From contig DUKY01000020.1 in the NCBI GenBank assembly GCA_013329055.1, positions 54,989 to 118,988 of the forward strand: 64,000 bases of DNA, given 5' to 3'. Shown in pieces: positions 4,613-61,202 of the stretch; positions within the stretch are counted from its first letter, which is position 1; every line of letters begins with the position of its first letter. A program made the translations under genes and the position numbers. This DNA is from Nanobdellota archaeon. GTDB taxonomy: Archaea; Nanobdellota; Nanobdellia; Pacearchaeales; GW2011-AR1. The notes under the pieces are model-generated. The model did no database searches, was not told where the DNA came from, and saw nothing but the letters and a program-made list of their open reading frames with translations.

Positions 4613-4766
4613 AAAATGAACCCTTGGTTTCTTTTTGAAAAAGTGTTTTAAAGATTTTAACAAATCCCCTTTTTAATCTTGAATTTTTCCCACATCCCCC
4701 AAATTATTACTAAAGTAATAATTTGCCTTTAAGCAGTTAAAATCTTAATTATTAAAAACAATTTTT
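4613..4766. repeat. A-run/gaacc-ggttc hairpin/T-run followed by a family-A hairpin element
   Basis: The hairpin is aaaatgaacccttggtttcttttt. The arms are gaaaaagtgttttaaagattttaac and gttaaaatcttaattattaaaaacaattttt. The inner hairpin is caaattattac-taaa-gtaataatttg. Confidence 0.8.
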
Positions 4767-4859
4767 GAAACTTGAATGGTTAATCCTATTCCTATTATTA
4801 ATATGTAAAATTAATTTGTTATTTCTTTTATTCCTTTCTTTTAATCTAAATATAAAAAA

Positions 4860-7609: not shown

Positions 7610-7654
7610 ATGGTGCTTAAGCTTAAGAGGTTTTTAAAATTAATTGATAATTTT

Positions 7655-8300
7655 TTTTAAAAAGTGTGTTAAAGATTTTAACTATTCCCCTGAATTTTTT
7701 TGTTGAAAAAGTGTGTCAAAGATTTTAACAAATCCCCTTTTTAATCTTGAATTTTTCCCACATTCTCATAACCTCGCACGAAACTTTGTGGATTATTGTT
7801 TCTACCACGAAGTTATTCGCCCCAAAATCATTATTAATGATTTGCCTTTAAGCTATAGAGAATTATAAAATAATTCTCTAAAAAGTAAACTAAACCAACG
7901 TTAATTCAATTAGTTTACTTTGTTAAAATCTTATTATTAAACACACTTTTTTATTTTTTTACTTGAATTTAATGCCCCCCTTCTTCTCGTAACCTCGCAC
8001 GAAACTTTGTGGATGAAAAAAGCATACAAAGATTTTAACAAATCCCCTTTTTAATCTTGAATTTTTCCCACATCCCCCAAATCATTATTAAAATAATGAT
8101 TTGCCTTTAAGCAGTTAAAATCTTATTGTTGGTATGCTTTTTTTATTGTTTCTACCACGAAGTTATTCGCCCCCATTATTCCTAAAGTAATAATTTACCT
8201 TTAAGTTATATTAAAATCTTATTATTAAACACACTTTTTTATTTCTTTACTTGAATTTAATGCCTCCCCTTCTCGTAACCTCGCACGAAACTTTATTGAT
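7655..8300. repeat. about 650 bp block of nested family-A hairpin elements (at least three elements, one inside another)
   Basis: The outer arms are aaaaagtgtgtt... (7659) and ...aaacacactttttt (8240). An inner element has arms at 7706-7729 and 7921-7952. A third element (8015-8143) interrupts the module that is intact at 7781-7822. Confidence 0.85.
8015..8143. mobile_element. MITE-like hairpin element inserted into the loop of another repeat module
   Basis: The intact sequence is aaactttgtggat|tattgtttctaccacgaagttattcgcccc at 7781-7824. The same flanks occur at 8002-8014 and 8144-8170, separated by a ~129-bp element with complementary ends gaaaaaagcatac...gtatgctttttt. Confidence 0.7.
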
Positions 8301-8364
8301 ATAAAAGTATTTGAAAAATCTCAATTATTAATTACTCTTTTATTATAATTAATCTTATAAATAA

Positions 8365-12130: not shown

Positions 12131-12363
12131 GGTTCTGTCCAGAATTAAGTTTTTTTGATTTTAGGATTCCCCCTTCAATGAAAGACCCCTCGGTTCTCTT
12201 AGAAAATTGTTTTTAAGATTTAACTATTCCCCTGAATTTTTTTGTTTGAATCTTTATCCCCACATCCCCCTCATTATTGCAAAGCAATAATTCGCCTTTA
12301 AGTTGTTAAATCTTAATTGTTAAAAACAATTTTTTAATTTCCTCAAAGTTTGGAAGGGGTATC
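12131..12363. repeat. composite repeat insertion (left half of family B plus a family-A element at 12201-12335) flanked by an 11-bp direct repeat
   Basis: ttctaagaatt occurs at 12120-12130 and 12364-12374. The B-type left arm is ggttctgtccagaattaagtttttttgattttag. The A-type arms are agaaaattgtttttaagatttaac and gttaaatcttaattgttaaaaacaatttttt. Confidence 0.75.
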
Positions 12364-22372: not shown

Positions 22373-22506
22373 GGCTCTTTTCGGAATTAAGTTTTTTTGA
22401 TTTTAGGATTCCCACTTCTAGTTCAAGCTAAAGCTTGAAGACCCGCCCTTAATGAATACCTGAATTGCCAATATGTTAGCTAAAATCAAAAACTCTAAAC
22501 AGAGCC
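22373..22506. repeat. family-B MITE-like element
   Basis: The arms are ggctcttttcggaattaagtttttttgattttag and ctaaaatcaaaaactctaaacagagcc. The central palindrome is ttcaagct-aa-agcttgaa. The element ends 3 nt from the stop codon at 22510. Confidence 0.8.
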
Positions 22507-25552: not shown

Positions 25553-25957
25553 TTATTCAATGTATATTTCAAAAAATTGAGTAAATTTTTTCCCTTTTTC
25601 TTTTGCATCTTTTATAGATATTGCATAATTTTTCCCTGAGTCTTTTAGTTCTTTTGGTTCAATGAATAACCATCCTTCCCGATTAAATCTTAATGCTATT
25701 ACCGGTGTTAGTTTAAATATCTCTGAAAATGTTAGGAATCTGCTTATTTGGTCTTTTGAGATATAAATTGTTTGTTTTTTGCTGGATTTGACTTCAATGC
25801 AGAATTTTTTATCTTCTTTTCCTGCAATTAAATCACAATCTGCATTTTCCATTGTTCCACTTCCTGCAACTCTTACGACTCTGTAAATTCCGGTTTCAAT
25901 GAATTTTTGGAAAAGTTCTCTTTCTGTTTTTGAGCCTTTGGCTTTATTTTTTGGCAT
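25553..25957 (-). CDS. hjc: Holliday junction resolvase Hjc
   Basis: The pattern KGSKTERELFQKF...VRVAGSG...DLIAGK...CIEVKSSK matches the Hjc nuclease core (E...D...E-x-K). Confidence 0.85.
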   Translation of the reverse strand: MPKNKAKGSKTERELFQKFIETGIYRVVRVAGSGTMENADCDLIAGKEDKKFCIEVKSSKKQTIYISKDQISRFLTFSEIFKLTPVIALRFNREGWLFIEPKELKDSGKNYAISIKDAKEKGKKFTQFFEIYIE

Positions 25958-25985: not shown

Positions 25986-26326
25986 ATGGCATTCAAGGAA
26001 CCAAGGGGTTCACATTCCATGTGGCATTACAGGAGGCTCCGAAAGTTTACACGAGTTTTCATGATAGCCCTTGATACGAGTGTGGACTTGAGTAGAAAGT
26101 TTACACGAGTTCTCATGATAGCCCCTGATACGAGTGGGTTTGAGTTTAGAGATGCCCCCGTTCCGCAAAGTTTGAGGACGAAGTTATTGAACAGCGACAA
26201 ACATTTTAAATGAATAACGACTTTTCAATGACTGAGCCAGCTTAAAAACTTCAAAAGTATCGTCTTTTGAATGTCCCAGAAAATTTAATTCTACAAATTT
26301 TCTGAGGAAACCAGCGGGTGTCTTTT
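25986..26326 (-). repeat. family-C ~340-bp structured repeat, copy 1 (reverse complement of copy 2 at 44669-45010)
   Basis: The reverse complement begins aaaagacacccgctggtttcctcagaaaattt..., directly abutting the stop of the 26325..26510 gene. About 170 nt are near-identical to copy 2, followed by two tandem units built on gtgtaaactttctactcaagtccacac. Confidence 0.85.
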
Positions 26327-26510
26327 ACAAATCTCTTGCTTGAATTGTTCTTCTGTTATTTGCTTTTGCTCGTTTTATGGCATCTCTTAATATTTCTTCT
26401 ACTTTTCTTTCAAGTGCCATTCCTACTTCTTCTGCAACGCTTGATACTGTATTTTCCTTATCCAGTTCTTTGATTGCTTTTTTGATGTTGCTTTTTACAA
26501 TTAAACTCAT
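26325..26510 (-). CDS. histone-fold-like small DNA-binding protein
   Basis: 61 aa. AEEVGMALERKVEEILRDAIKRAKANNRRTIQARDL resembles the alpha2-L2-alpha3 region of archaeal histones and DUF1931. Confidence 0.55.
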   Translation of the reverse strand: MSLIVKSNIKKAIKELDKENTVSSVAEEVGMALERKVEEILRDAIKRAKANNRRTIQARDL

Positions 26511-31685: not shown

Positions 31686-32050
31686 GAAATTGTTTTTAAG
31701 ATTTAACTAAAAAGAACCCTCTGGTTCTTTTTGAATCTCCTCAAAATATTGAAAGGTGGCATCTCTTTGAGCCTTTGTGGATGCCACGTGGAAATCCCTG
31801 AATTTCTTTGTTTGAATCTTAATGCCCCACATTCTCGTAACCTCGCACGAAACTTTGTGGGTTATCGTTTCTACCACGAAGTTACTCGCCCCAAAATTAT
31901 TAAAATAATAATTTGCCTTTAGGTCGTTAAAATCTTATTGTTGGTATGCTTTTTTTTATAGTTTCTATTATGAATTTAATTGCCTTTTGTACAATTATTA
32001 AAGTATAATTTGTATTAAGCAATTAAAATCTATTGTTAGTATGCTTTTTT
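31686..32050. repeat. composite family-A repeat block with an inserted hairpin module and two tandem right arms
   Basis: The left arm is gaaattgtttttaagatttaac. The inserted modules are aaaaagaaccctctggttcttttt and gtggcatc...gatgccac. An intact cgcacgaaactttgtgg...ccacgaagtt module is present, and two ...attgttggtatgctttttt arms follow. Confidence 0.8.
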
Positions 32051-36212: not shown

Positions 36213-36768
36213 AAAGAATACAAGATTTTAACAAATCCCCTTTTTTCTTTGTTTGAATTTTATTCCCCACATTCTCATAACCTCGCACGAAACTTTGTGT
36301 AGGTAAAAAAGCGTATGAAAATTTGATTTTTGAGATTCCCACTTCAAGTTCAAGCTAAAGCTTGAAGACCCGCCCTTAAAAATATTTGAATTTCCAATAA
36401 GCTAATCAAAAATTAAATTTTTATTATTAAACACACTTTTTTATTTCTTTGCTTGAATTTTAATCTCCCACATTCCCCAAATTATTACAAAAGTAATAAT
36501 TTGCCTTTAAGCTATAGAAAAAATAATATTTTTTCTAAAAAGTAAACTAAACCAACGTTAATTCAATTAGTTTACTTCGTTAAAATCTTATTGTTGGTAT
36601 GCTTTTTTTATTATTTGCGAAGTTACTCTACTCCTTGTGAAAACTTGCTTTAAATCAAGAAAAAATTTTGATTTATTGGCAATTTTCAAAGTTACTCGCC
36701 CCTTTATTGCTTTGCAATATCTCACCTTTAAGTTTCATTAAAATCTTATTGTTGGTATGCTTTTTTTA
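36213..36768. repeat. about 550 bp mosaic of family-A modules with a nested family-B copy (36321-36414)
   Basis: It contains ...cgcacgaaactttgtg interrupted by other modules, and the B core cccacttcaagttcaagctaaagcttgaagacccgccc. The two-hairpin module tagagaa.../agtaaacta...tagtttact matches 7855-7921. Two ...attgttggtatgcttttttt arms are present. Confidence 0.8.
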
Positions 36769-43628: not shown

Positions 43629-43964
43629 ATGAAAAAGAGTAGCTGGTCAACAATAATTATTGTTTTTGGAATTTTAATTATTTCTGTTTTTATTTTGTAT
43701 AGACCTACTATAGAGACTCCTGAAGAAATTGCAAAATGTATCGGAAGAGAATCTTTGATTTATACTCAGTTAGGTTGTCATGCTTGTTTAATTCAGGAAG
43801 AGATGTTTGGTGATTCTTATAAATATTTGAATAAAATTGATTGTTTTTATGAACGTGAAAAATGTTTAGATATTGGTGCTACGCCTACTTGGATTATTAA
43901 TGGGCAACGGTATGAAGGGGTTCATAGTATTGAAGAATTACAAAATTTAACGGGGTGTGAATAA
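43629..43964 (+). CDS. membrane-anchored thioredoxin-like protein (CxxC)
   Basis: The TM is WSTIIIVFGILIISVFILY. GCHACLIQEEMFG...CFYEREKCLDIGATPTWIING resembles the Trx-like domain associated with VKOR/DsbD systems. I prefer the ATG at 43629 to the TTG at 43551. Confidence 0.6.
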   Translation: MKKSSWSTIIIVFGILIISVFILYRPTIETPEEIAKCIGRESLIYTQLGCHACLIQEEMFGDSYKYLNKIDCFYEREKCLDIGATPTWIINGQRYEGVHSIEELQNLTGCE

Positions 43965-44668
43965 TGATTGATTTAAGTGAATTTTTTAGAATTACTGGTT
44001 TGGCTTTGGCAGATTCTATTAATCCTTGTGCTATTGCTGTTTTAACAATGATTTTAATGTCTATTTTAATTAAAAATCCCGGAAAAAAAGAAAAAGTTCT
44101 TTACGCTGGTTTAAGTTTTATTTTGGCTGTTTATGTTGGATATTTATTTTATGGAATTATTATTGTTCAATTTTTTAAATCGTTTGCTGAAGTTTTAAGA
44201 GATAATTCCGGTTTTGTTTTTAATGGTCTTGCAATTTTTTCTATGATTATCGGGGCATTAAATATCAAGGATTATTTTTTATATAAAAAAGGCGGTATTG
44301 CTACAGAAATGCCGATTTTTTTACGTCCAAAAGTTAAAAAGATTATCGACGGTATTACCTCTCCGTTTGGTGCATTTTTTACCGGATTTTTGATTACTTT
44401 ATTTTTATTGCCGTGTACAATTGGTCCGTATATAGTTGCTTCAGGTTTATTAGCTGATAAGATTTTTTTAATTGCAATTTTTTGGTTATTATATTATAAT
44501 TTGGTTTTTGTTTTACCAATGCTGATTATTGTTGGTATTATTTATTTTGGATTTGTAAAAGTTGACGAAGTTTCCGGCTGGAAAGAAAGTAATATTCGAT
44601 TGTTGCATTTAATTGCCGGTATTTTATTATTTGTCGTCGGATTTTCGTTGTTGATTGGGTGGCTATAA
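43964..44668 (+). CDS. ccdA: CcdA/DsbD-family thiol-disulfide electron transporter
   Basis: It has six TM-like helices and the two conserved Cys-Pro motifs, DSINPCAIAVL and LLPCTIGPY. Start and stop overlap with the upstream Trx-like gene. Confidence 0.78.
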   Translation: MIDLSEFFRITGLALADSINPCAIAVLTMILMSILIKNPGKKEKVLYAGLSFILAVYVGYLFYGIIIVQFFKSFAEVLRDNSGFVFNGLAIFSMIIGALNIKDYFLYKKGGIATEMPIFLRPKVKKIIDGITSPFGAFFTGFLITLFLLPCTIGPYIVASGLLADKIFLIAIFWLLYYNLVFVLPMLIIVGIIYFGFVKVDEVSGWKESNIRLLHLIAGILLFVVGFSLLIGWL

Positions 44669-45010
44669 TAAAAGACACCCGCTGGTTTCCTCAGAAAATT
44701 TGAAAAATGAAATTTTCTGGGACTATCAAAAGACGATACTTTTGAAGTTTTTGAGCTGGCTCAGTCATTGAAAAGTCGTTATTCATTTAAAATGTTTGTC
44801 GCTGTTCAATAACTTCGTCCTCAAACTTTGCGGAGCGGTGGCATCTTTACTCAAGCCCACACTTGCGACTTTTAAAATTTGCTTTCAGAATATTATGCAA
44901 GTGTAAACTTTCTACTCAAGTCCACACTTACAGCTTTTATCTTTACCTTCGGGATTAATGTAAGTGTAAACTTTCGACCTCCTTGTAATGCCACATGAAG
45001 TATTGAATGG
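44669..45010 (+). repeat. family-C ~340-bp structured repeat, copy 2
   Basis: It starts immediately after the ccdA stop codon (taataaaagacacccgctgg...). It contains the hairpins cagaaaattt...aaattttctg and tcaaaag-acgata-cttttga, and two units cacacttgc...gcaagtgt and cacacttac...gtaagtgt. The closing stem gtggcat...atgccac is present. Confidence 0.85.
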
Positions 45011-45042
45011 TGATTTTTTAAACGAGATATCCCTAGAAGTAG

Positions 45043-45249
45043 TTAAAATGAAATTTTATTATTATTAAATTCATATCTTGTTCGATTTCTGCAAAAATTG
45101 CAACAATTAGAATATTCTAAACAAATACTTTCGCATTCTCTGTCTAGTTCTCTGTTTGTGCAAAGAAAAATATCTTGTTTTTCTGCCTGATCATATCTAA
45201 TAAAGACTTCTTTATTAGGGTGATATTGTCTGCATCTTAATTCTGACAT
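45043..45249 (-). CDS. small cysteine-rich hypothetical protein
   Basis: 68 aa with 9 Cys (CESICLEYSNCCNFC). Confidence 0.4.
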   Translation of the reverse strand: MSELRCRQYHPNKEVFIRYDQAEKQDIFLCTNRELDRECESICLEYSNCCNFCRNRTRYEFNNNKISF

Positions 45250-45331
45250 TTTTATAATAAAATTAATCTATTTATATATCTTATTCTATTTTTGGATAAG
45301 TATTTAAATGTTGTTTTTTTATGTTTTTATT

Positions 45332-45652
45332 ATGAAAGAATACAAAGTAACTGGTGTAATTGACTTGAATAAACCTTCTGAACAAATTTTTTTTGGGGTT
45401 GTAAAAGGTCTTGAAGGGAAATTTAATGGGAAAATTAGTTTTAGTAATTGTTCTGGGTGTTCTGGTTGTAATGGTGAATCTGAAAAATTGGAAATGGCTG
45501 TATATAGTAAATCATTAAGTATTGTTTATACTTCTCCTGATGCTTTTTTAGGTCATTTTGAAAAATTTGACCGAGAAGAAGGAAAACACGGCATTGTTGG
45601 TGAGTATTCCAATAAAAGGATGTATTTGAATGTTGCGGAATTAGTTAAATAA
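45332..45652 (+). CDS. hypothetical protein (paralogue of 45684..46028)
   Basis: It shares the EGKF(N/S)GKI motif with the next gene and has a CSGCSGC stretch. I prefer the ATG at 45332 because gtatttaaat is centred about 27 nt upstream. Confidence 0.45.
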   Translation: MKEYKVTGVIDLNKPSEQIFFGVVKGLEGKFNGKISFSNCSGCSGCNGESEKLEMAVYSKSLSIVYTSPDAFLGHFEKFDREEGKHGIVGEYSNKRMYLNVAELVK

Positions 45653-45683
45653 TATTTAAATAGTTGTAAATCTTGAGTTTTTT

Positions 45684-46028
45684 ATGGTTATATGTAGATT
45701 GACAAAAGTTTTATTGGAAAATGGAAGACCAATGGATAAAGATTTTTCTGAAATTTTTGAAGTTAGTGACGAAGGTAAATTTTCAGGAAAAATTTTTAAG
45801 TATCAACCTTTTTGCAAAGGTGAAATTAGGGGAAAATTTGATTTAACTAAAGGAATTTTGTCTTTGAATTATCTTTTTAATGGTACAAGCATTGGACAAA
45901 TTTATAGCTTAGAGCGACAATTTTGTTTACCTTGTAATCGTGAGACTATTTTTGGTCATTATTTTGATAAAAAGAGAGAAGTTTTATTCCAAATTGAAGA
46001 TTGTGATAAATGTGACAAGTGTGATTAA
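45684..46028 (+). CDS. hypothetical protein, Cys-rich C-terminus
   Basis: The motifs are DEGKFSGKI and CDKCDKCD. A TATA-like aatatttaaata is centred about 27 nt upstream. Confidence 0.45.
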   Translation: MVICRLTKVLLENGRPMDKDFSEIFEVSDEGKFSGKIFKYQPFCKGEIRGKFDLTKGILSLNYLFNGTSIGQIYSLERQFCLPCNRETIFGHYFDKKREVLFQIEDCDKCDKCD

Positions 46029-46821: not shown

Positions 46822-46868
46822 TAAAAGATTAGGTGAGATGATAAGTTTTCAATTTAAAATTAGAATCT

Positions 46869-47387
46869 TTAACCCTTACTTTTTCTGTTTGGTTTGTTTA
46901 TCTCGAACCATTTGCTGATTTCTTGAATTATTTCTGATGTTATTCTTGGGTCTTGAAGTTCGTAAAATTCTTGAGGAGTTATTATTTTATAATATCCTTT
47001 TCCATATGTATTAACTTCTTTAAGATTGCCATATTGAAATTTTTCCCTTGTTGTAATACAAGTGTCTTCTCTACATCTTCCCCAATTATTATTATTTTCT
47101 GTTGGAAAATTGTCTAGTTGCCATTTCCAATTTCCACATTCATAAATTTGCATTAATGTGTCATAACTTTCCTGAGTTGGAGTATTAATTGCTGTTTTTT
47201 CTAATTCTTTTAAAATTAAAATTGGTCTGCCATTTTCGTTTCTTTCTAAAAGAGGTTTTATTTGGTTTGAACCCATATATTGATTTAGGTCTCCAAATAA
47301 ATTCATTCTTTGAATTTTTGTTTCTTCTAATTTTTTCATCATCTTTTCATGTGGAAGAATTATCATTGATTTGTTGAGGGTTATCAT
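46869..47387 (-). CDS. MITLNKSM-family orphan protein, paralogue 1 of 6
   Basis: 172 aa. It shares the N-terminus MITLNKSMIILPHEKMMKKLEE, the core YDTLMQIYECGNWKW, and the C-terminus ITPQEFYELQDPRITSEIIQEISKWFEINKPNRKSKG. Confidence 0.7.
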   Translation of the reverse strand: MITLNKSMIILPHEKMMKKLEETKIQRMNLFGDLNQYMGSNQIKPLLERNENGRPILILKELEKTAINTPTQESYDTLMQIYECGNWKWQLDNFPTENNNNWGRCREDTCITTREKFQYGNLKEVNTYGKGYYKIITPQEFYELQDPRITSEIIQEISKWFEINKPNRKSKG

Positions 47388-47388
47388 T

Positions 47389-47901
47389 TTATCCTTTACT
47401 TTTTCTGTTTGGTTTGTTTATCTCGAACCATTTGCTGATTTCTTGAATTATTTCTGATGTTATTCTTGGGTCTTGAAGTTCATAAAACTCTTGAGGAGTT
47501 ATTATTTTATAATTTCCGTATTCGTTAACTTCTTTAAGATCTCCATATTGAAATTTATTATATGCTTGAACACAAGTTATTTTTCCATAGCATTCCCAAG
47601 CATTAAATTCTGTTGGTAAAATTATGTCTTCAACCCATTTTCTATCACCACATTCGTAAATTTGCATTAATGTGTCATAATTTTCTTGAGTGGGAGTATG
47701 AATTACTGTCCTTTCTAATTCTTTTAATTCTAAAATTGGTCTTCCATTTTCATCTTTTGTAAGATTAGAATTTGTTGAGTCAGATCCCATATATTGATTA
47801 AGGTTTCCAAATAAATTAATTCTTTTAATTCTTGTATCTTCTAATTTTTTCATCATCTTTTCATGTGGAAGAATTATCATTGATTTGTTTAATGTTATCA
47901 T
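47389..47901 (-). CDS. MITLNKSM-family orphan protein, paralogue 2 of 6
   Basis: 170 aa. Its stop lies 1 nt before the start of paralogue 1. An ~85-nt stretch at the 3' end is identical to paralogue 1. Confidence 0.7.
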   Translation of the reverse strand: MITLNKSMIILPHEKMMKKLEDTRIKRINLFGNLNQYMGSDSTNSNLTKDENGRPILELKELERTVIHTPTQENYDTLMQIYECGDRKWVEDIILPTEFNAWECYGKITCVQAYNKFQYGDLKEVNEYGNYKIITPQEFYELQDPRITSEIIQEISKWFEINKPNRKSKG

Positions 47902-48021
47902 TTTAATTTTATCTTTAATCTGAAGTTTATAAACTTTTGTTTTAGATGTAACTATCTAGTGGTAAACTATTTTATTCTAGAATTATTTTTATCTTTGGAT
48001 TATTAAATAAGAAATTTAGAA

Positions 48022-49685: not shown

Positions 49686-49818
49686 GGCTCTGTCCAGAAT
49701 TAAGTTTTTTTGATTTTAGAATTCCCACTTCTAGTTCAAGCTAAAGCTTGAAGACCCGCCCTTAATGAATATCTGAATTGCCAAAAGTTAGCTAAAATCA
49801 AAAACTTTGGACAGAGCC
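49686..49818. repeat. family-B MITE-like element overlapping the 3' end of the glycosyltransferase gene
   Basis: The arms are ggctctgtccagaattaagtttttttgattttag and ctaaaatcaaaaactttggacagagcc. The core is cccacttctagttcaagctaaagcttgaagacccgccc. Confidence 0.85.
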
Positions 49819-52513: not shown

Positions 52514-52990
52514 TTAGAAATCGAATTTAAACCATTGATTTATTTCTTCTATCATTGAATTTGTAACACCTTCAATATCATAAAACTCTTTTGATTGTAT
52601 TATTTTGTAATTTATACTTTCATAAAATTCTATACTTGAAAATCCTACTTTGCCCTGTACACTTATGCATGTTTTTTTTCCATACATCTCCCAAAAGCTA
52701 CGTGTTGTTGGTTTATTTTCACTTTCCCATTTCCAATCTGCACATTCACAAACTCTCATTAAATCCCAATATTCTTTTTTGCTTATTGTTTGCACTACTG
52801 TTTTATCTAAAGGGGTTAAATATAAACTTGGTCTTCCATTTTTATCTCTCTTAAAATTAGCATTTATATTTGATCCCATATATTTATTAAGGTCTTTACA
52901 TAAAAGCATTCTTTGAACTCTTGTTTGTTCTAATTTTTTTATCATTTCTTCATGAGGGATAATTATCATTGATTTGTTTAATGTTATCAT
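52514..52990 (-). CDS. MITLNKSM-family orphan protein, paralogue 4 of 6 (lacks the basic C-terminal tail)
   Basis: 158 aa with MITLNKSMIIIPHEE..., YWDLMRVCECADWKW and EEINQWFKFDF. Confidence 0.65.
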   Translation of the reverse strand: MITLNKSMIIIPHEEMIKKLEQTRVQRMLLCKDLNKYMGSNINANFKRDKNGRPSLYLTPLDKTVVQTISKKEYWDLMRVCECADWKWESENKPTTRSFWEMYGKKTCISVQGKVGFSSIEFYESINYKIIQSKEFYDIEGVTNSMIEEINQWFKFDF

Positions 52991-52991
52991 T

Positions 52992-53495
52992 TTATCCTTT
53001 GCTTTTTCTGTTTGGTTTATTTATTTCAAATAATTGATTTATCTCTTTAATCATTTTTTGCGTTATTTCTGGTTTTTGAAATTCGCAAAATTCTTGCAAA
53101 GTTAATATCTTCCAATTCTTTTGAATATAAAATTCTTTGTTTCCACATCTAAATCCGTTTTTTATTGGTATGCATGTTTTTTGTTTATAACCTTTCCAAA
53201 AATTATGTTCTGTTGGGTTATTATCTGGCCATTCCCATTTTCCAATTTCATAGATTTGCATTAATGTGTCATAATTTTCCTGAGTTGGAATATGGACTGC
53301 TGTATTTTCTAATTCTGTTAAAATTAAAGTTGGTCTTCCATATTCTCCTTTTGCAAGATTAGAATTTGTTGAATTATATCCCATATATTGATTCAGGTTT
53401 TTGAATAAATGCATTCTTTGTATTCTTGTTTCTTCTAATTTTTTTATCATTTCTTCTTGTGGAAGAATTGTCATTGATTTGTTTAATGTGATCAT
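52992..53495 (-). CDS. MITLNKSM-family orphan protein, paralogue 5 of 6
   Basis: 167 aa. Here the core Cys is replaced (QIYEIGKWEW). The C-terminus is EINKPNRKSKG. Confidence 0.65.
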   Translation of the reverse strand: MITLNKSMTILPQEEMIKKLEETRIQRMHLFKNLNQYMGYNSTNSNLAKGEYGRPTLILTELENTAVHIPTQENYDTLMQIYEIGKWEWPDNNPTEHNFWKGYKQKTCIPIKNGFRCGNKEFYIQKNWKILTLQEFCEFQKPEITQKMIKEINQLFEINKPNRKSKG

Positions 53496-53496
53496 T

Positions 53497-54009
53497 TTAT
53501 CCTTTGCTTTCTCTATTTGGTTTGTTTATCTCGAACCATTCATTTATCTCTTGGATGATTTCTTGTGTTATTTCTGGTTCTTGAAGTTCGTAAAATTCTT
53601 TAGGGGTTATTATTTTCAAATTAAAATTTTGTGCATGTTTAAATGCAAAACTATATATAAAATTTTTTTTTGCGGTTATATTCATGTTGTTTTCTTGATT
53701 GTTTTTCCAAGCATTAAATTCTGTAGGTAATTTTTCAGAATACCATTTCCAGCTTCCACATTCATAAAGTTGCATTAGTGTGTCATAAATTTTTTGATTT
53801 TGTATTTGTATGACCATTCCATCTAATTGTTTTAAATCTAAAATTGGTTTTCCATTTTCATTTCTTTTTAAATTATAATTTATTTGATTGGTTCCAATAT
53901 ATTGGTTAAGGTCTTTACATAGAAGCATTCTTTGTATTCTTGTTTGTTTTAATTTTTCTATCATTTCATCATGCGGTAGAATTATCATTGATTTGTTTAA
54001 TGTTATCAT
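53497..54009 (-). CDS. MITLNKSM-family orphan protein, paralogue 6 of 6
   Basis: 170 aa with YDTLMQLYECGSWKW and EWFEINKPNRESKG. Its stop lies 1 nt before the start of paralogue 5. Confidence 0.65.
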   Translation of the reverse strand: MITLNKSMIILPHDEMIEKLKQTRIQRMLLCKDLNQYIGTNQINYNLKRNENGKPILDLKQLDGMVIQIQNQKIYDTLMQLYECGSWKWYSEKLPTEFNAWKNNQENNMNITAKKNFIYSFAFKHAQNFNLKIITPKEFYELQEPEITQEIIQEINEWFEINKPNRESKG

Positions 54010-54124
54010 TGGTATTATTTTTAGATTTAAAATTTATAAACTTTTGGTTCAATGTTACTATTTAGTGACAAATGATAATTCTTAAAATAGTTTAAAAAAT
54101 ATTTTTATATTTGAAGAATTACTT

Positions 54125-60935: not shown

Positions 60936-61202
60936 ATGTGCCTTTACAATGGATGTTCCGCTTTGAGTTATATTACCCCGATTTACCTCAATTTCCAATT
61001 ACTTATGTTCATAAAATATTCAGAACAAAAAGAAATTTGGCATGAAACTTACAGATTCCGTGTGCTTGTTGAAGGAATATTTTCTGCACTTAAGAGAAAG
61101 CATCTAAACTATTTACGTTCCAAAAAAGAGATTGCTCTTCATGTTGAGCTTTTGCTAAAGGTACTGGTATACAATTTGACAATAATTGGGAAGTATTCCT
61201 AA
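60936..61202 (+). pseudogene. C-terminal remnant of an IS4/IS5-type DDE transposase
   Basis: YRFRVLVEGIFSALKRKHLNYLRSKKEIALHVELLLKVLVYNL matches the Y-x2-R-x3-E-x6-K region of IS4/IS5 transposases. No intact N-terminal part is present. Confidence 0.55.

Follow-up and report, generated by a model that had tools for sequence, protein, structure and literature searches.

In Streptococcus pneumoniae, BOX elements are arranged as boxA-(boxB)n-boxC: the end modules pair with each other, the tandem middle module varies in number, no transposase is encoded and the elements are often situated after genes. The repetitive extragenic palindromes (REPs) and bacterial interspersed mosaic elements (BIMEs) of enterobacteria are extragenic mosaics of short imperfect palindromes and linkers, often located right after stop codons, which lack inverted ends and target duplications and are associated with Y1 transposases termed RAYT (REP-associated tyrosine transposases). 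Rickettsia palindromic elements (RPEs), repeated palindromes with a length of about 100 nt, are found in a genome that is reduced, have no known transposase and occur both in intergenic regions and in frame within genes. Palindrome-associated transposable elements (PATEs), which derive from IS200/IS605, exhibit hairpin ends but neither inverted ends nor target duplications, and their orientation is biased with respect to replication. For DPANN archaea, the literature was searched for MITEs (miniature transposable elements with inverted repeats) or hairpin repeats and nothing specific was found. Here, we describe two elements in a 64,000-nt stretch (the window) of contig DUKY01000020.1 from a Nanobdellota archaeon and compare them with these systems. 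The element termed copy A follows the gene ccdA on the plus strand, and copy B follows a histone-fold gene on the minus strand. Their host is a DPANN archaeon (1.19 Mb, 28% G+C, 85% complete genome) whose CcdA has its relatives in metagenome-assembled genomes (MAGs) labelled Pacearchaeota, Woesearchaeota or Nanoarchaeota. In the following, C-numbers denote contigs of the host genome (the window is part of C18) and L-numbers denote loci in other genomes.

Copies A and B are probably compound members of a genome-wide family of small, non-autonomous hairpin repeats, i.e., selfish and recombining mosaic DNA in a DPANN host of the Pacearchaeota type. Both exhibit the layout U[1-19]-I1-U[20-30]-I2-U[31-57]-I3-I3-U[58-79], which represents a single 79-nt base unit (U) split by four cassettes of three types. 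An earlier sequence-only reading of the window had considered them as the two copies of one element, a count that has to be given up, as the family is large and the two elements are compound members of it.

In terms of architecture, the BOX and BIME mosaics appear to be the closest described systems, while the RPEs seem closest with regard to the in-frame insertions found in the family. As in BOX elements, paired end modules (the arms of P3, the outer stem of U) enclose zero, one or two middle modules (I3; two in copy B vs. one at the corresponding locus L125), a likeness that concerns the architecture only and does not extend to homology. The present elements differ from BOX in their archaeal host, in the nature of I3, which is a discrete hairpin cassette that also occurs in a second repeat family (M1), and in two further cassette types that are nested in U. 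They share the extragenic mosaic of short imperfect palindromes and linkers with REPs and BIMEs. However, no GTAG-type tetranucleotide was recognized, the genome contains no RAYT/Y1 gene, and the units are longer (79 nt with three hairpins) and also occur in frame within open reading frames (ORFs). This occurrence in frame as well as in intergenic regions is shared with the RPEs, which differ in being bacterial and unrelated in sequence. To our knowledge, RPEs have not been described with nested cassettes or tandem inner modules, both of which are present here. Finally, the insertion of non-autonomous elements into one another, the hairpins, the absence of a duplication and the polarity of U, M1 and a third family, M2, resemble nested MITEs and PATEs (copies A and B themselves are situated in a zone of zero skew). 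Unlike for PATEs, neither TnpA nor TnpB was found in the genome, and no module was located beside the four Y1 genes examined in relatives. CRISPR and viral mini-arrays are similar in that a unit of about 27 nt alternates with segments of 27-38 nt, and different in that a leader-plus-cas context is absent here and the hairpin tips are recurrent.

Modular layout of copies A and B

The base unit U was defined by iterative nhmmer searches over the whole genome, which yielded 60 matches, 29 of them at full length. It has three parts: hairpin P1 (AAAAGGAACC-CCTT-GGTTCCTTTT) with an A-run before and a T-run after it, P2 as a weak hairpin in the middle, and P3 (GGTGGCATC-16 nt-GATGCCAC) as the outer stem. 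Partial matches to U break at three fixed points and each of these breaks is occupied by a discrete cassette: I1 splits P1 on its 3' strand, I2 occupies the linker between P1 and P2, and the loop of P3 contains two tandem I3 cassettes. The helices of U are spared by all three insertion points, and compensatory changes were identified in P1 (across the 29 full-length copies), in P3 and in the stem of I3. A complete and uninterrupted U is located in the window at positions 31710-31787 (+; nhmmer match C18:86698-86775, model positions 1-78).

Copy A spans positions 44669-45019 (+) and opens with a TAA directly downstream of ccdA (43964-44668, +, from the ORF list), whose own stop codon TAA occupies positions 44666-44668. 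The C-terminus of CcdA (...GWL*) is unchanged in orthologues and the protein was therefore not altered by the insertion. The element begins with the head U[1-19] (TAAAAGACACCCGCTGGTTTC, 44669-44689), which comprises the 5' arm, the loop and the upper 3' arm of P1. The 58-nt cassette I1 with its two hairpins (CAGAAAATTT..AAATTTTCTG and TTCAAAAG..CTTTTGAA) follows at 44690-44747 within the 3' strand of P1, and the linker U[20-30] (tttttgagct, 44748-44757) separates it from I2, a long hairpin of 60 nt (44758-44817). Next are the segment U[31-57] with the P2 region and the 5' arm of P3 (GGTGGCATC, 44818-44848), a first I3 with a tip of type a (ACTCAAGCCCACAC-TTGC..GCAA-GTGTAAACTTTCT, 44849-44913) and a second I3 with a tip of type b (TTAC..GTAA, 44914-44976). 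U[58-79] closes the unit at 44977-44995 and supplies what is left of the P3 loop as well as ATGCCAC, its 3' arm. A degenerate, partial second U (tgaagtattgaatggtga) and a T6 run (44996-45019) form the true end of the array, 9 nt beyond the end given previously; this second unit is more complete at locus L093 of another genome. A non-repeat spacer of 23 nt separates copy A from a 68-aa Cys-rich ORF (45043-45249, -) that is convergent with ccdA. This ORF is the first of three small Cys-rich ORFs (68, 114, and 114 aa; 45043-46028) that are situated after the Trx-like/CcdA pair.

Copy B spans positions 25997-26327 (-). In this case, the upstream histone-fold gene (26325-26510, -), which codes for 61 aa with a weak match to the Pfam family CBFD_NFYB_HMF, ends in the very TAA (26325-26327) with which the element opens. 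At the other end, a spacer of 39 nt is left before the ATG of hjc (25553-25957, -; Pfam Hjc), the gene for a Holliday-junction resolvase. The head (26307-26327), I1 (26249-26306), I2 (26179-26238) and U[31-57] with the 5' arm of P3 (GGGGGCATC, 26146-26178) are followed by two tandem I3 cassettes at 26040-26145, the first of which has a degenerate 5' foot. Both carry tips of type c (tcgtatcaRgggctatcatgaRaactc). U[58-79] with the 3' arm of P3 and a partial next head (gaaccccttggttcc) complete the element at 25997-26039. Copies A and B are 96% identical across about 205 nt, with 21/21 identical positions in the head, 53/58 in I1, 9/10 in the linker, 60/60 in I2 and 28/33 in the next segment. Independent assemblies carry both loci with equal spacer lengths, which rules out an assembly artefact, and the contigs with identical CcdA all show the same spacer of 374 nt. 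Several statements of the sequence-only reading were thus confirmed, namely that each element opens at a stop codon and points in the direction of the gene upstream of it, that the outer stem GGTGGCAT..ATGCCAC closes the region and that this stem exists without the insert at 31.75 kb, where the complete U is located. The reported near-identity is real, though its length was underestimated at 170 nt, and the differences were only partly found where they had been placed, i.e., in hairpin loops, as three of about nine are situated in the loop of the first hairpin.

The CRISPR-like appearance of the distal part is a consequence of two I3 cassettes standing in tandem. The 27-mer GTGTAAACTTTCTACTCAAGTCCACAC is exact in both copies (44901-44927; 26080-26106) and has six near-copies elsewhere in the genome. 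It marks the joint of two I3 cassettes, where the 3' foot (GTGTAAACTTTCT) of the former meets the 5' foot (ACTCAAGTCCACAC) of the latter (the first and the second I3 in the case of copy A). Each element contains one full and two partial “repeats” of this kind. The “spacers” correspond to the I3 hairpins above their feet (upper stem plus tip), their ends are base-paired and they fall into three types. Type a was also found at C13:46046, C13:8706, C24:33572, and C2:48951, type b at C13:45982, C2:14075, and C9:7339, and type c at C24:33.65k, C16:55564, and C19:26941. Homology exists between types a and b, which share 25/38 positions in the inner part and 50/65 over the whole cassette. Consequently, the description of these segments as copy-specific inserts is wrong, and that of a hypervariable module is not supported, as the genome contains three recurrent tip types and the tip is variable only across genera, inside a conserved frame. 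Other observations on this part hold true: the two 27-mers of copy B are nearly identical (25/27), and the compensatory pair TTGC..GCAA vs. TTAC..GTAA is real and recurs throughout the genome (G-C 10, A-U 4, A-C 1). The conclusion that the element is not a CRISPR array is supported by the absence of Cas1 and by “spacers” that are recurrent, mutually homologous and paired at their ends.

Dispersal, turnover and placement of the family

A search of the whole genome for further copies revealed a large family whose modules occur apart from each other at >100 loci. More than 100 intergenic regions carry repeats, each with 15-35 partners, and positions 1-95, 92-157, and 150-340 of copy A each match a separate set of loci. 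I1 (58 nt, two hairpins) has 41 genomic nhmmer matches, 13 of which are situated at the same position of U as in copies A and B; I2 (60 nt, one long hairpin) has 10 matches; and I3 (about 65 nt, one hairpin) has 18 matches, with five more for the form with the type c tip. I1 is linked to tRNA genes: for 16 of the 41 copies, one of the 25 tRNA genes is no more than 300 nt away, and most of these copies occupy the 3' trailer. Examples of such tRNA-linked copies are found at C23:56600-57500, C11:108390-108810, and C4:5297-5509, mostly beside T-loop-like fragments (tgattcgaac). I2 and I3 also occur inside M1, with the same boundaries as in U. Six of the 10 I2 copies are inserted in M1, and a seventh (C10:73-131) is part of a chimera in which a U head and I2 are joined to M1's right half. 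Hence, the modules are discrete and found in unrelated hosts.

M1 is a classical MITE of 133 nt with 13-bp inverted ends (GGCTCTGTCCAGA). Six matches were found in the window vs. 0.84 expected, including those at 49686-49818 and 22373-22506 and those beginning at 12131 and 57723. A 9-bp target duplication (e.g., GGTTGTTGA or ATTTTAAAC) flanks eight of 10 copies, and it is still present around a 565-nt M1 at C19:79280 that contains nested I3, M2, I3-I3 and I2. M2 is a repeat family of about 135 nt with 46 matches and inverted ends (ttttaagatttaac...gttaaatcttaa), often clustered or nested with further unclassified modules; in the window, it is located at 377-644, 4615-4770, 7651-8307, 31790-31968, and 36213-36768. 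Only M1, with its inverted ends and 9-bp duplication, fits the definition of a MITE, while U and I1-I3 do not. No terminal inverted repeats were found in I1-I3, and the head (TAAAAGACACC) and tail (..ATGCCACA) of the composites are not inverted repeats of each other. A comparison of filled and empty hosts revealed no target duplication at the junctions of I2 and I3 and at most 2 bp of shared sequence. Likewise, no target duplication surrounds copies A and B; the longest string shared by the two flanks of copy A measures 11 nt, is off-register and lies within the range of controls. A bulge-helix-bulge intron at the cassette junctions was considered and rejected, as CCC and AAA are both situated on one side of the 4-bp ACAC/GUGU helix, where they form a 3x3 loop, and the I2 junctions show no such pairing.

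Units of the family insert as DNA, also into coding sequence. U is present in frame in an 853-aa polB-like ORF (C13:29980-30057) and in a 396-aa ORF (C13:35663-35741), where it is flanked by a perfect 21-bp direct target duplication (CCTGAAGTAATGATTGTTGAA) with a partial third copy; these cases concern other family members and not copies A and B themselves. A U with I1 at C11:43224 is flanked by a direct repeat of 34 bp. Direct repeats of this kind, which are unusually long, surround U arrays at C11:43190-43415 (the 34 bp just mentioned) and at C24:33690-34050 (at least 39 bp); the one on C24 takes in part of a U tail and has the appearance of a segmental duplication that involved two copies of U.

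Comparison of related strains revealed turnover at identical sites. At L093, where the DNA of ccdA is 95.6% identical, the gene is followed by head-I1-I3a-I3b, and the 60-nt I2 is cleanly absent, i.e., the site is empty. At L125, where the histone protein is identical, the spacer between the histone gene and hjc carries another subtype of the head, I1, no I2, another subtype of P2 and one I3c instead of the two found in copy B. Cassette content therefore changes between sister strains at the same sites. The head after ccdA was also found in a diverged strain represented by Logan unitigs, which break at the repeats and revealed nothing beyond this. No element was found after ccdA at 14 other related MAG loci examined, which belong to other genera (CcdA 66-74% identical). 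An inversion between copies A and B was rejected, as sister strains keep the same pairings of gene and tail. Segments are also exchanged among dispersed copies: the I3 region of copy A (positions 150-340) is 91% identical to C13:45951-46138, while copy B carries tips of type c. Between copies A and B, which are inverted relative to each other and 18 kb apart, gene conversion is the likely form of such exchange. The sequence-only reading had left the choice between an RNA structure in the 3' untranslated region (3'-UTR) and a mobile element, and the latter is the better option in view of the dispersed modules, the cassette differences between sister strains and the absence of the element after ccdA in the 14 other MAGs.

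With regard to genes, the TAA or TGA of eight out of about 33 array heads doubles as the stop codon of a long ORF in the same orientation, and for five more heads such a stop codon is no more than 13 nt away. In total, 21 arrays are co-oriented with the upstream gene and 12 are not, and five heads adjoin the start codon predicted for a divergent gene. Where free of repeats, the spacers of this genome have a median length of only 38 nt (10 nt between convergent genes), and this geometry largely dictates how close the elements lie to stop codons.

In the host genome, Cas1 (PF01867; control genomes were positive) and Y1 (PF01797) yielded no matches. The sole trace of a transposase is an 88-aa ORF in the window (60936-61202, +) that matches only the C-terminal third of DDE_Tnp_1 (IS4/IS5-type) with an E-value of 5e-4, which misses the cut-off; no M1 ends border this ORF, which is likely a transposase remnant. 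Multi-copy repeats of 1-2 kb were considered as insertion sequences and rejected, as they are paralogous gene families. Paralogous genes for proteins of about 170 aa (MITLNKSMIILPHEKM...EINKPNRKSKG) form tandem pairs at window positions 46868-47905 and 52816-54010 (-), with about six genomic copies, and a separate family of 271-276 aa (MTKQLGEPYQFKRKLSDDSARDLKK...) occurs in tandem on C1 and C7.

The favored explanation of these observations as mosaic DNA would involve three steps. Cassettes would enter hairpin loops and junctions without target duplication, as suggested by junctions that have no more than 2 bp in common. The copies would then be shuffled and homogenized by gene conversion and homologous recombination, which would account for the identity of I2 in copies A and B. 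The elements would gather at stop codons because the short spacers are nearly the sole dispensable bases, and microhomology at TAA may add to this accumulation. Several points weigh against this explanation. No mobilizing enzyme (Y1 transposase, TnpB, reverse transcriptase or Cas1) was found in the 85%-complete genome, and copies A and B are not flanked by a target duplication. The fixed positions of the cassettes in U could reflect one ancient insertion followed by amplification and not repeated insertion. Moreover, the eight exact overlaps with stop codons exceed the one or two expected from spacer geometry, which suggests a preference for TAA or microhomology. Finally, about 25 genera retain the I3 frame together with non-Watson-Crick positions whose pattern is specific to one strand, which hints at a selected single-stranded structure, something that mere junk DNA would have no need of.

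Strand asymmetry, polarity and alternative explanations

This pattern emerged from a search for I3 in 401 genomes of the order, in which matches were obtained in 30 genomes from 25 genera, about half of them with the clear frame CTC-RAGCCCACAC-TCG..tip..CTC-GTGTAAACTY-TCG. The frame occurs in 27 other genomes of the order (loci L032-L051) in varied host sequences. In some genomes (L044, L034), it is organized in tandem arrays with a period of 118 nt. Analysis of 32 copies on the sense strand revealed the combinations GC (16), AT (8), AC (6), and GT (0) at position 1 and GC (20), AT (4), and AC (3) at position 13. CCC opposite AAA is invariant, and TC opposite TC was found 25 times, with TA opposite TA in its place in five cases. 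All of these non-Watson-Crick positions become G.U or tandem G.A pairs on the opposite strand only. There, the frame reads C-GA-GAG-UUU-ACAC-GA-G ... C-GA-GUGU-GGG-CUC-GA-G and contains two tandem G.A pairs and three G.U pairs, whose flanking pairs covary. A reading of the frame as a K-turn was rejected, as there is no 3-nt bulge beside the G.A pairs. Folding of copy A gave -90.5 kcal/mol (z = -4.3) for the opposite strand vs. -80.8 kcal/mol (z = -2.4) for the sense strand, and the sense strand of copy B reached z = -1.5 against shuffled sequences. In tRNA trailers, I1 is located in the opposite-strand orientation relative to the tRNA. In U, the asymmetry of wobble pairs is weak (A.C 15 vs. 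G.U 6). Though not decisive, these data are compatible with selection on a single-stranded form (RNA or single-stranded DNA) of the opposite strand, and they do not fit a simple 3'-UTR RNA of the sense strand.

The orientation of the repeats follows the sign of the local GC skew (±15 kb) in 29 of 32 U arrays, 21 of 23 M1 copies and all 26 M2 copies (76/81 together); for I1, the match is weaker (18/27). It persists where both flanking genes are located on the other strand (U 4/4, M1 7/7, M2 3/3), which argues that U, M1 and M2 are polarized with the replication arm and not with local transcription. As M1 with its DDE footprint is equally polarized, this polarity may stem from selection rather than from single-strand insertion, for example from selection against inversions between recombining repeats within a replication arm. 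Copies A and B are uninformative in this respect because they are situated in a 50-kb zone of near-zero skew. This zone (C18:60-110 kb, corresponding to 5-55 kb of the window) might be a rearranged segment or the boundary of a replication arm; the rest of the contig is strongly positive (0.12-0.41).

One possibility is that the cassettes, I3 above all, are substrates of an undescribed replication-coupled mode of single-stranded insertion in Pacearchaeota. Hairpins would then enter loops and junctions of hairpin repeats and tRNA-like sequences without target duplication, and the I3 frame would serve as the recognition structure. This idea is speculative, and we consider it rather unlikely. A function of the modules, above all of the I3 frame, on the opposite strand in single-stranded form, which was regarded as improbable, could take the shape of antisense RNAs or protein-binding hairpins that end in P1 and UUUU, or of single-stranded DNA hairpins in a replication-coupled insertion of the HUH/Y1 type or another kind. 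It would explain why the I3 frame pairs throughout on that strand only, why copy A folds better there and why I1 has a matching orientation in the 3' trailers of tRNAs, and cassettes without inverted ends or target duplication would be expected, as would an orientation that tracks the GC skew. Moreover, 33 of 100 genera of the DPANN family possess Y1 transposase genes (IS200/IS605 or RAYT-type), of which a single genome contains as many as 10. However, the host genome contains neither Y1 nor TnpB, and in relatives Y1 is not enriched with the I3 pattern (12 of 27 matching genomes vs. 33 of 100 genera), nor was any module found beside the Y1 genes at the four loci examined. M1 is polarized to the same degree despite its inverted ends and 9-bp duplications, and the asymmetry of wobble pairs in U is weak. 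Only low-complexity chance matches to the I3 tips were found in the host genome, without target-like complementarity. In addition, a transcript of the opposite strand at copy B would oppose both neighboring genes and would consequently require its own promoter.

Still less probable is a functional structured RNA that is tied to the upstream gene as a 3'-UTR stabilizer or terminator. In this scenario, the cassettes would be tolerated expansions, and U units would be retained at stop codons because P1 (A-run, GC hairpin, T-run) and the later T-runs end or protect the transcript. The placement of the arrays lends some weight to it, as 13 of about 33 heads are located within 13 nt of a co-oriented stop codon, eight of them exactly at it, and the majority are co-oriented with the upstream gene (21 vs. 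12). The same applies to the insertion points, which spare the helices of U, to the compensatory changes in these helices and to the sense strand, which folds somewhat better than shuffled sequences in copy A and copy B. Much of the closeness to stop codons is, however, explained by spacer geometry, and other copies of U are located inside ORFs or, in five arrays, beside the start codons of divergent genes. The element is absent from orthologous sites in other genera and its cassettes vary between sister strains. Furthermore, it is the opposite strand that folds better, and the mismatches of I3 are paired there only. A scan for bacterial-type consensus terminators returned no match. No part of the locus was present in four metatranscriptome runs that stem from the same samples or studies, a result that is uninformative and not negative. 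No match above the gathering threshold of Rfam was found in the whole window, and the best E-value for the element in permissive mode was 1.5.

A degenerate or orphan mini-CRISPR or another guide-RNA locus with the I3 tips as spacers or guides is already contradicted and can practically be dismissed: the superficial alternation of 27-nt repeats with inserts of 27-38 nt and the tip that varies across genera in a conserved frame are outweighed by the absence of Cas1 and TnpB, by the presence of two units only and not of several identical repeats with unique spacers, and by “spacers” that recur, are homologous to each other, pair with themselves and match neither the genome nor phage records nor viral contigs beyond what chance predicts. 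The 41 pattern matches obtained in viral contigs of IMG/VR all lack the I3 frame and are attributed to chance; the comparison of the inserts with viral sequences that had been proposed from the sequence alone therefore yielded nothing.

Implications for DPANN genomes

DPANN genomes are among the smallest and most tightly packed, yet more than 100 loci of nested hairpin repeats are tolerated here. These repeats inflate the spacers tenfold and even enter essential genes. The composites provide the clearest view of how such elements are built, with cassettes in units and units in arrays, gain and loss between strains, and exchange between copies that are 18 kb apart. In the annotation of such MAGs, elements of this kind are at risk of being mistaken for CRISPR arrays, small RNA genes or pieces of split tRNAs. 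If an enzyme responsible for the duplication-free insertion of cassettes were found, it would represent a new route of DNA mobility in archaea, and the strand-specific frame of I3, together with the polarity along the replication strand, offers handles for the search for such an enzyme.

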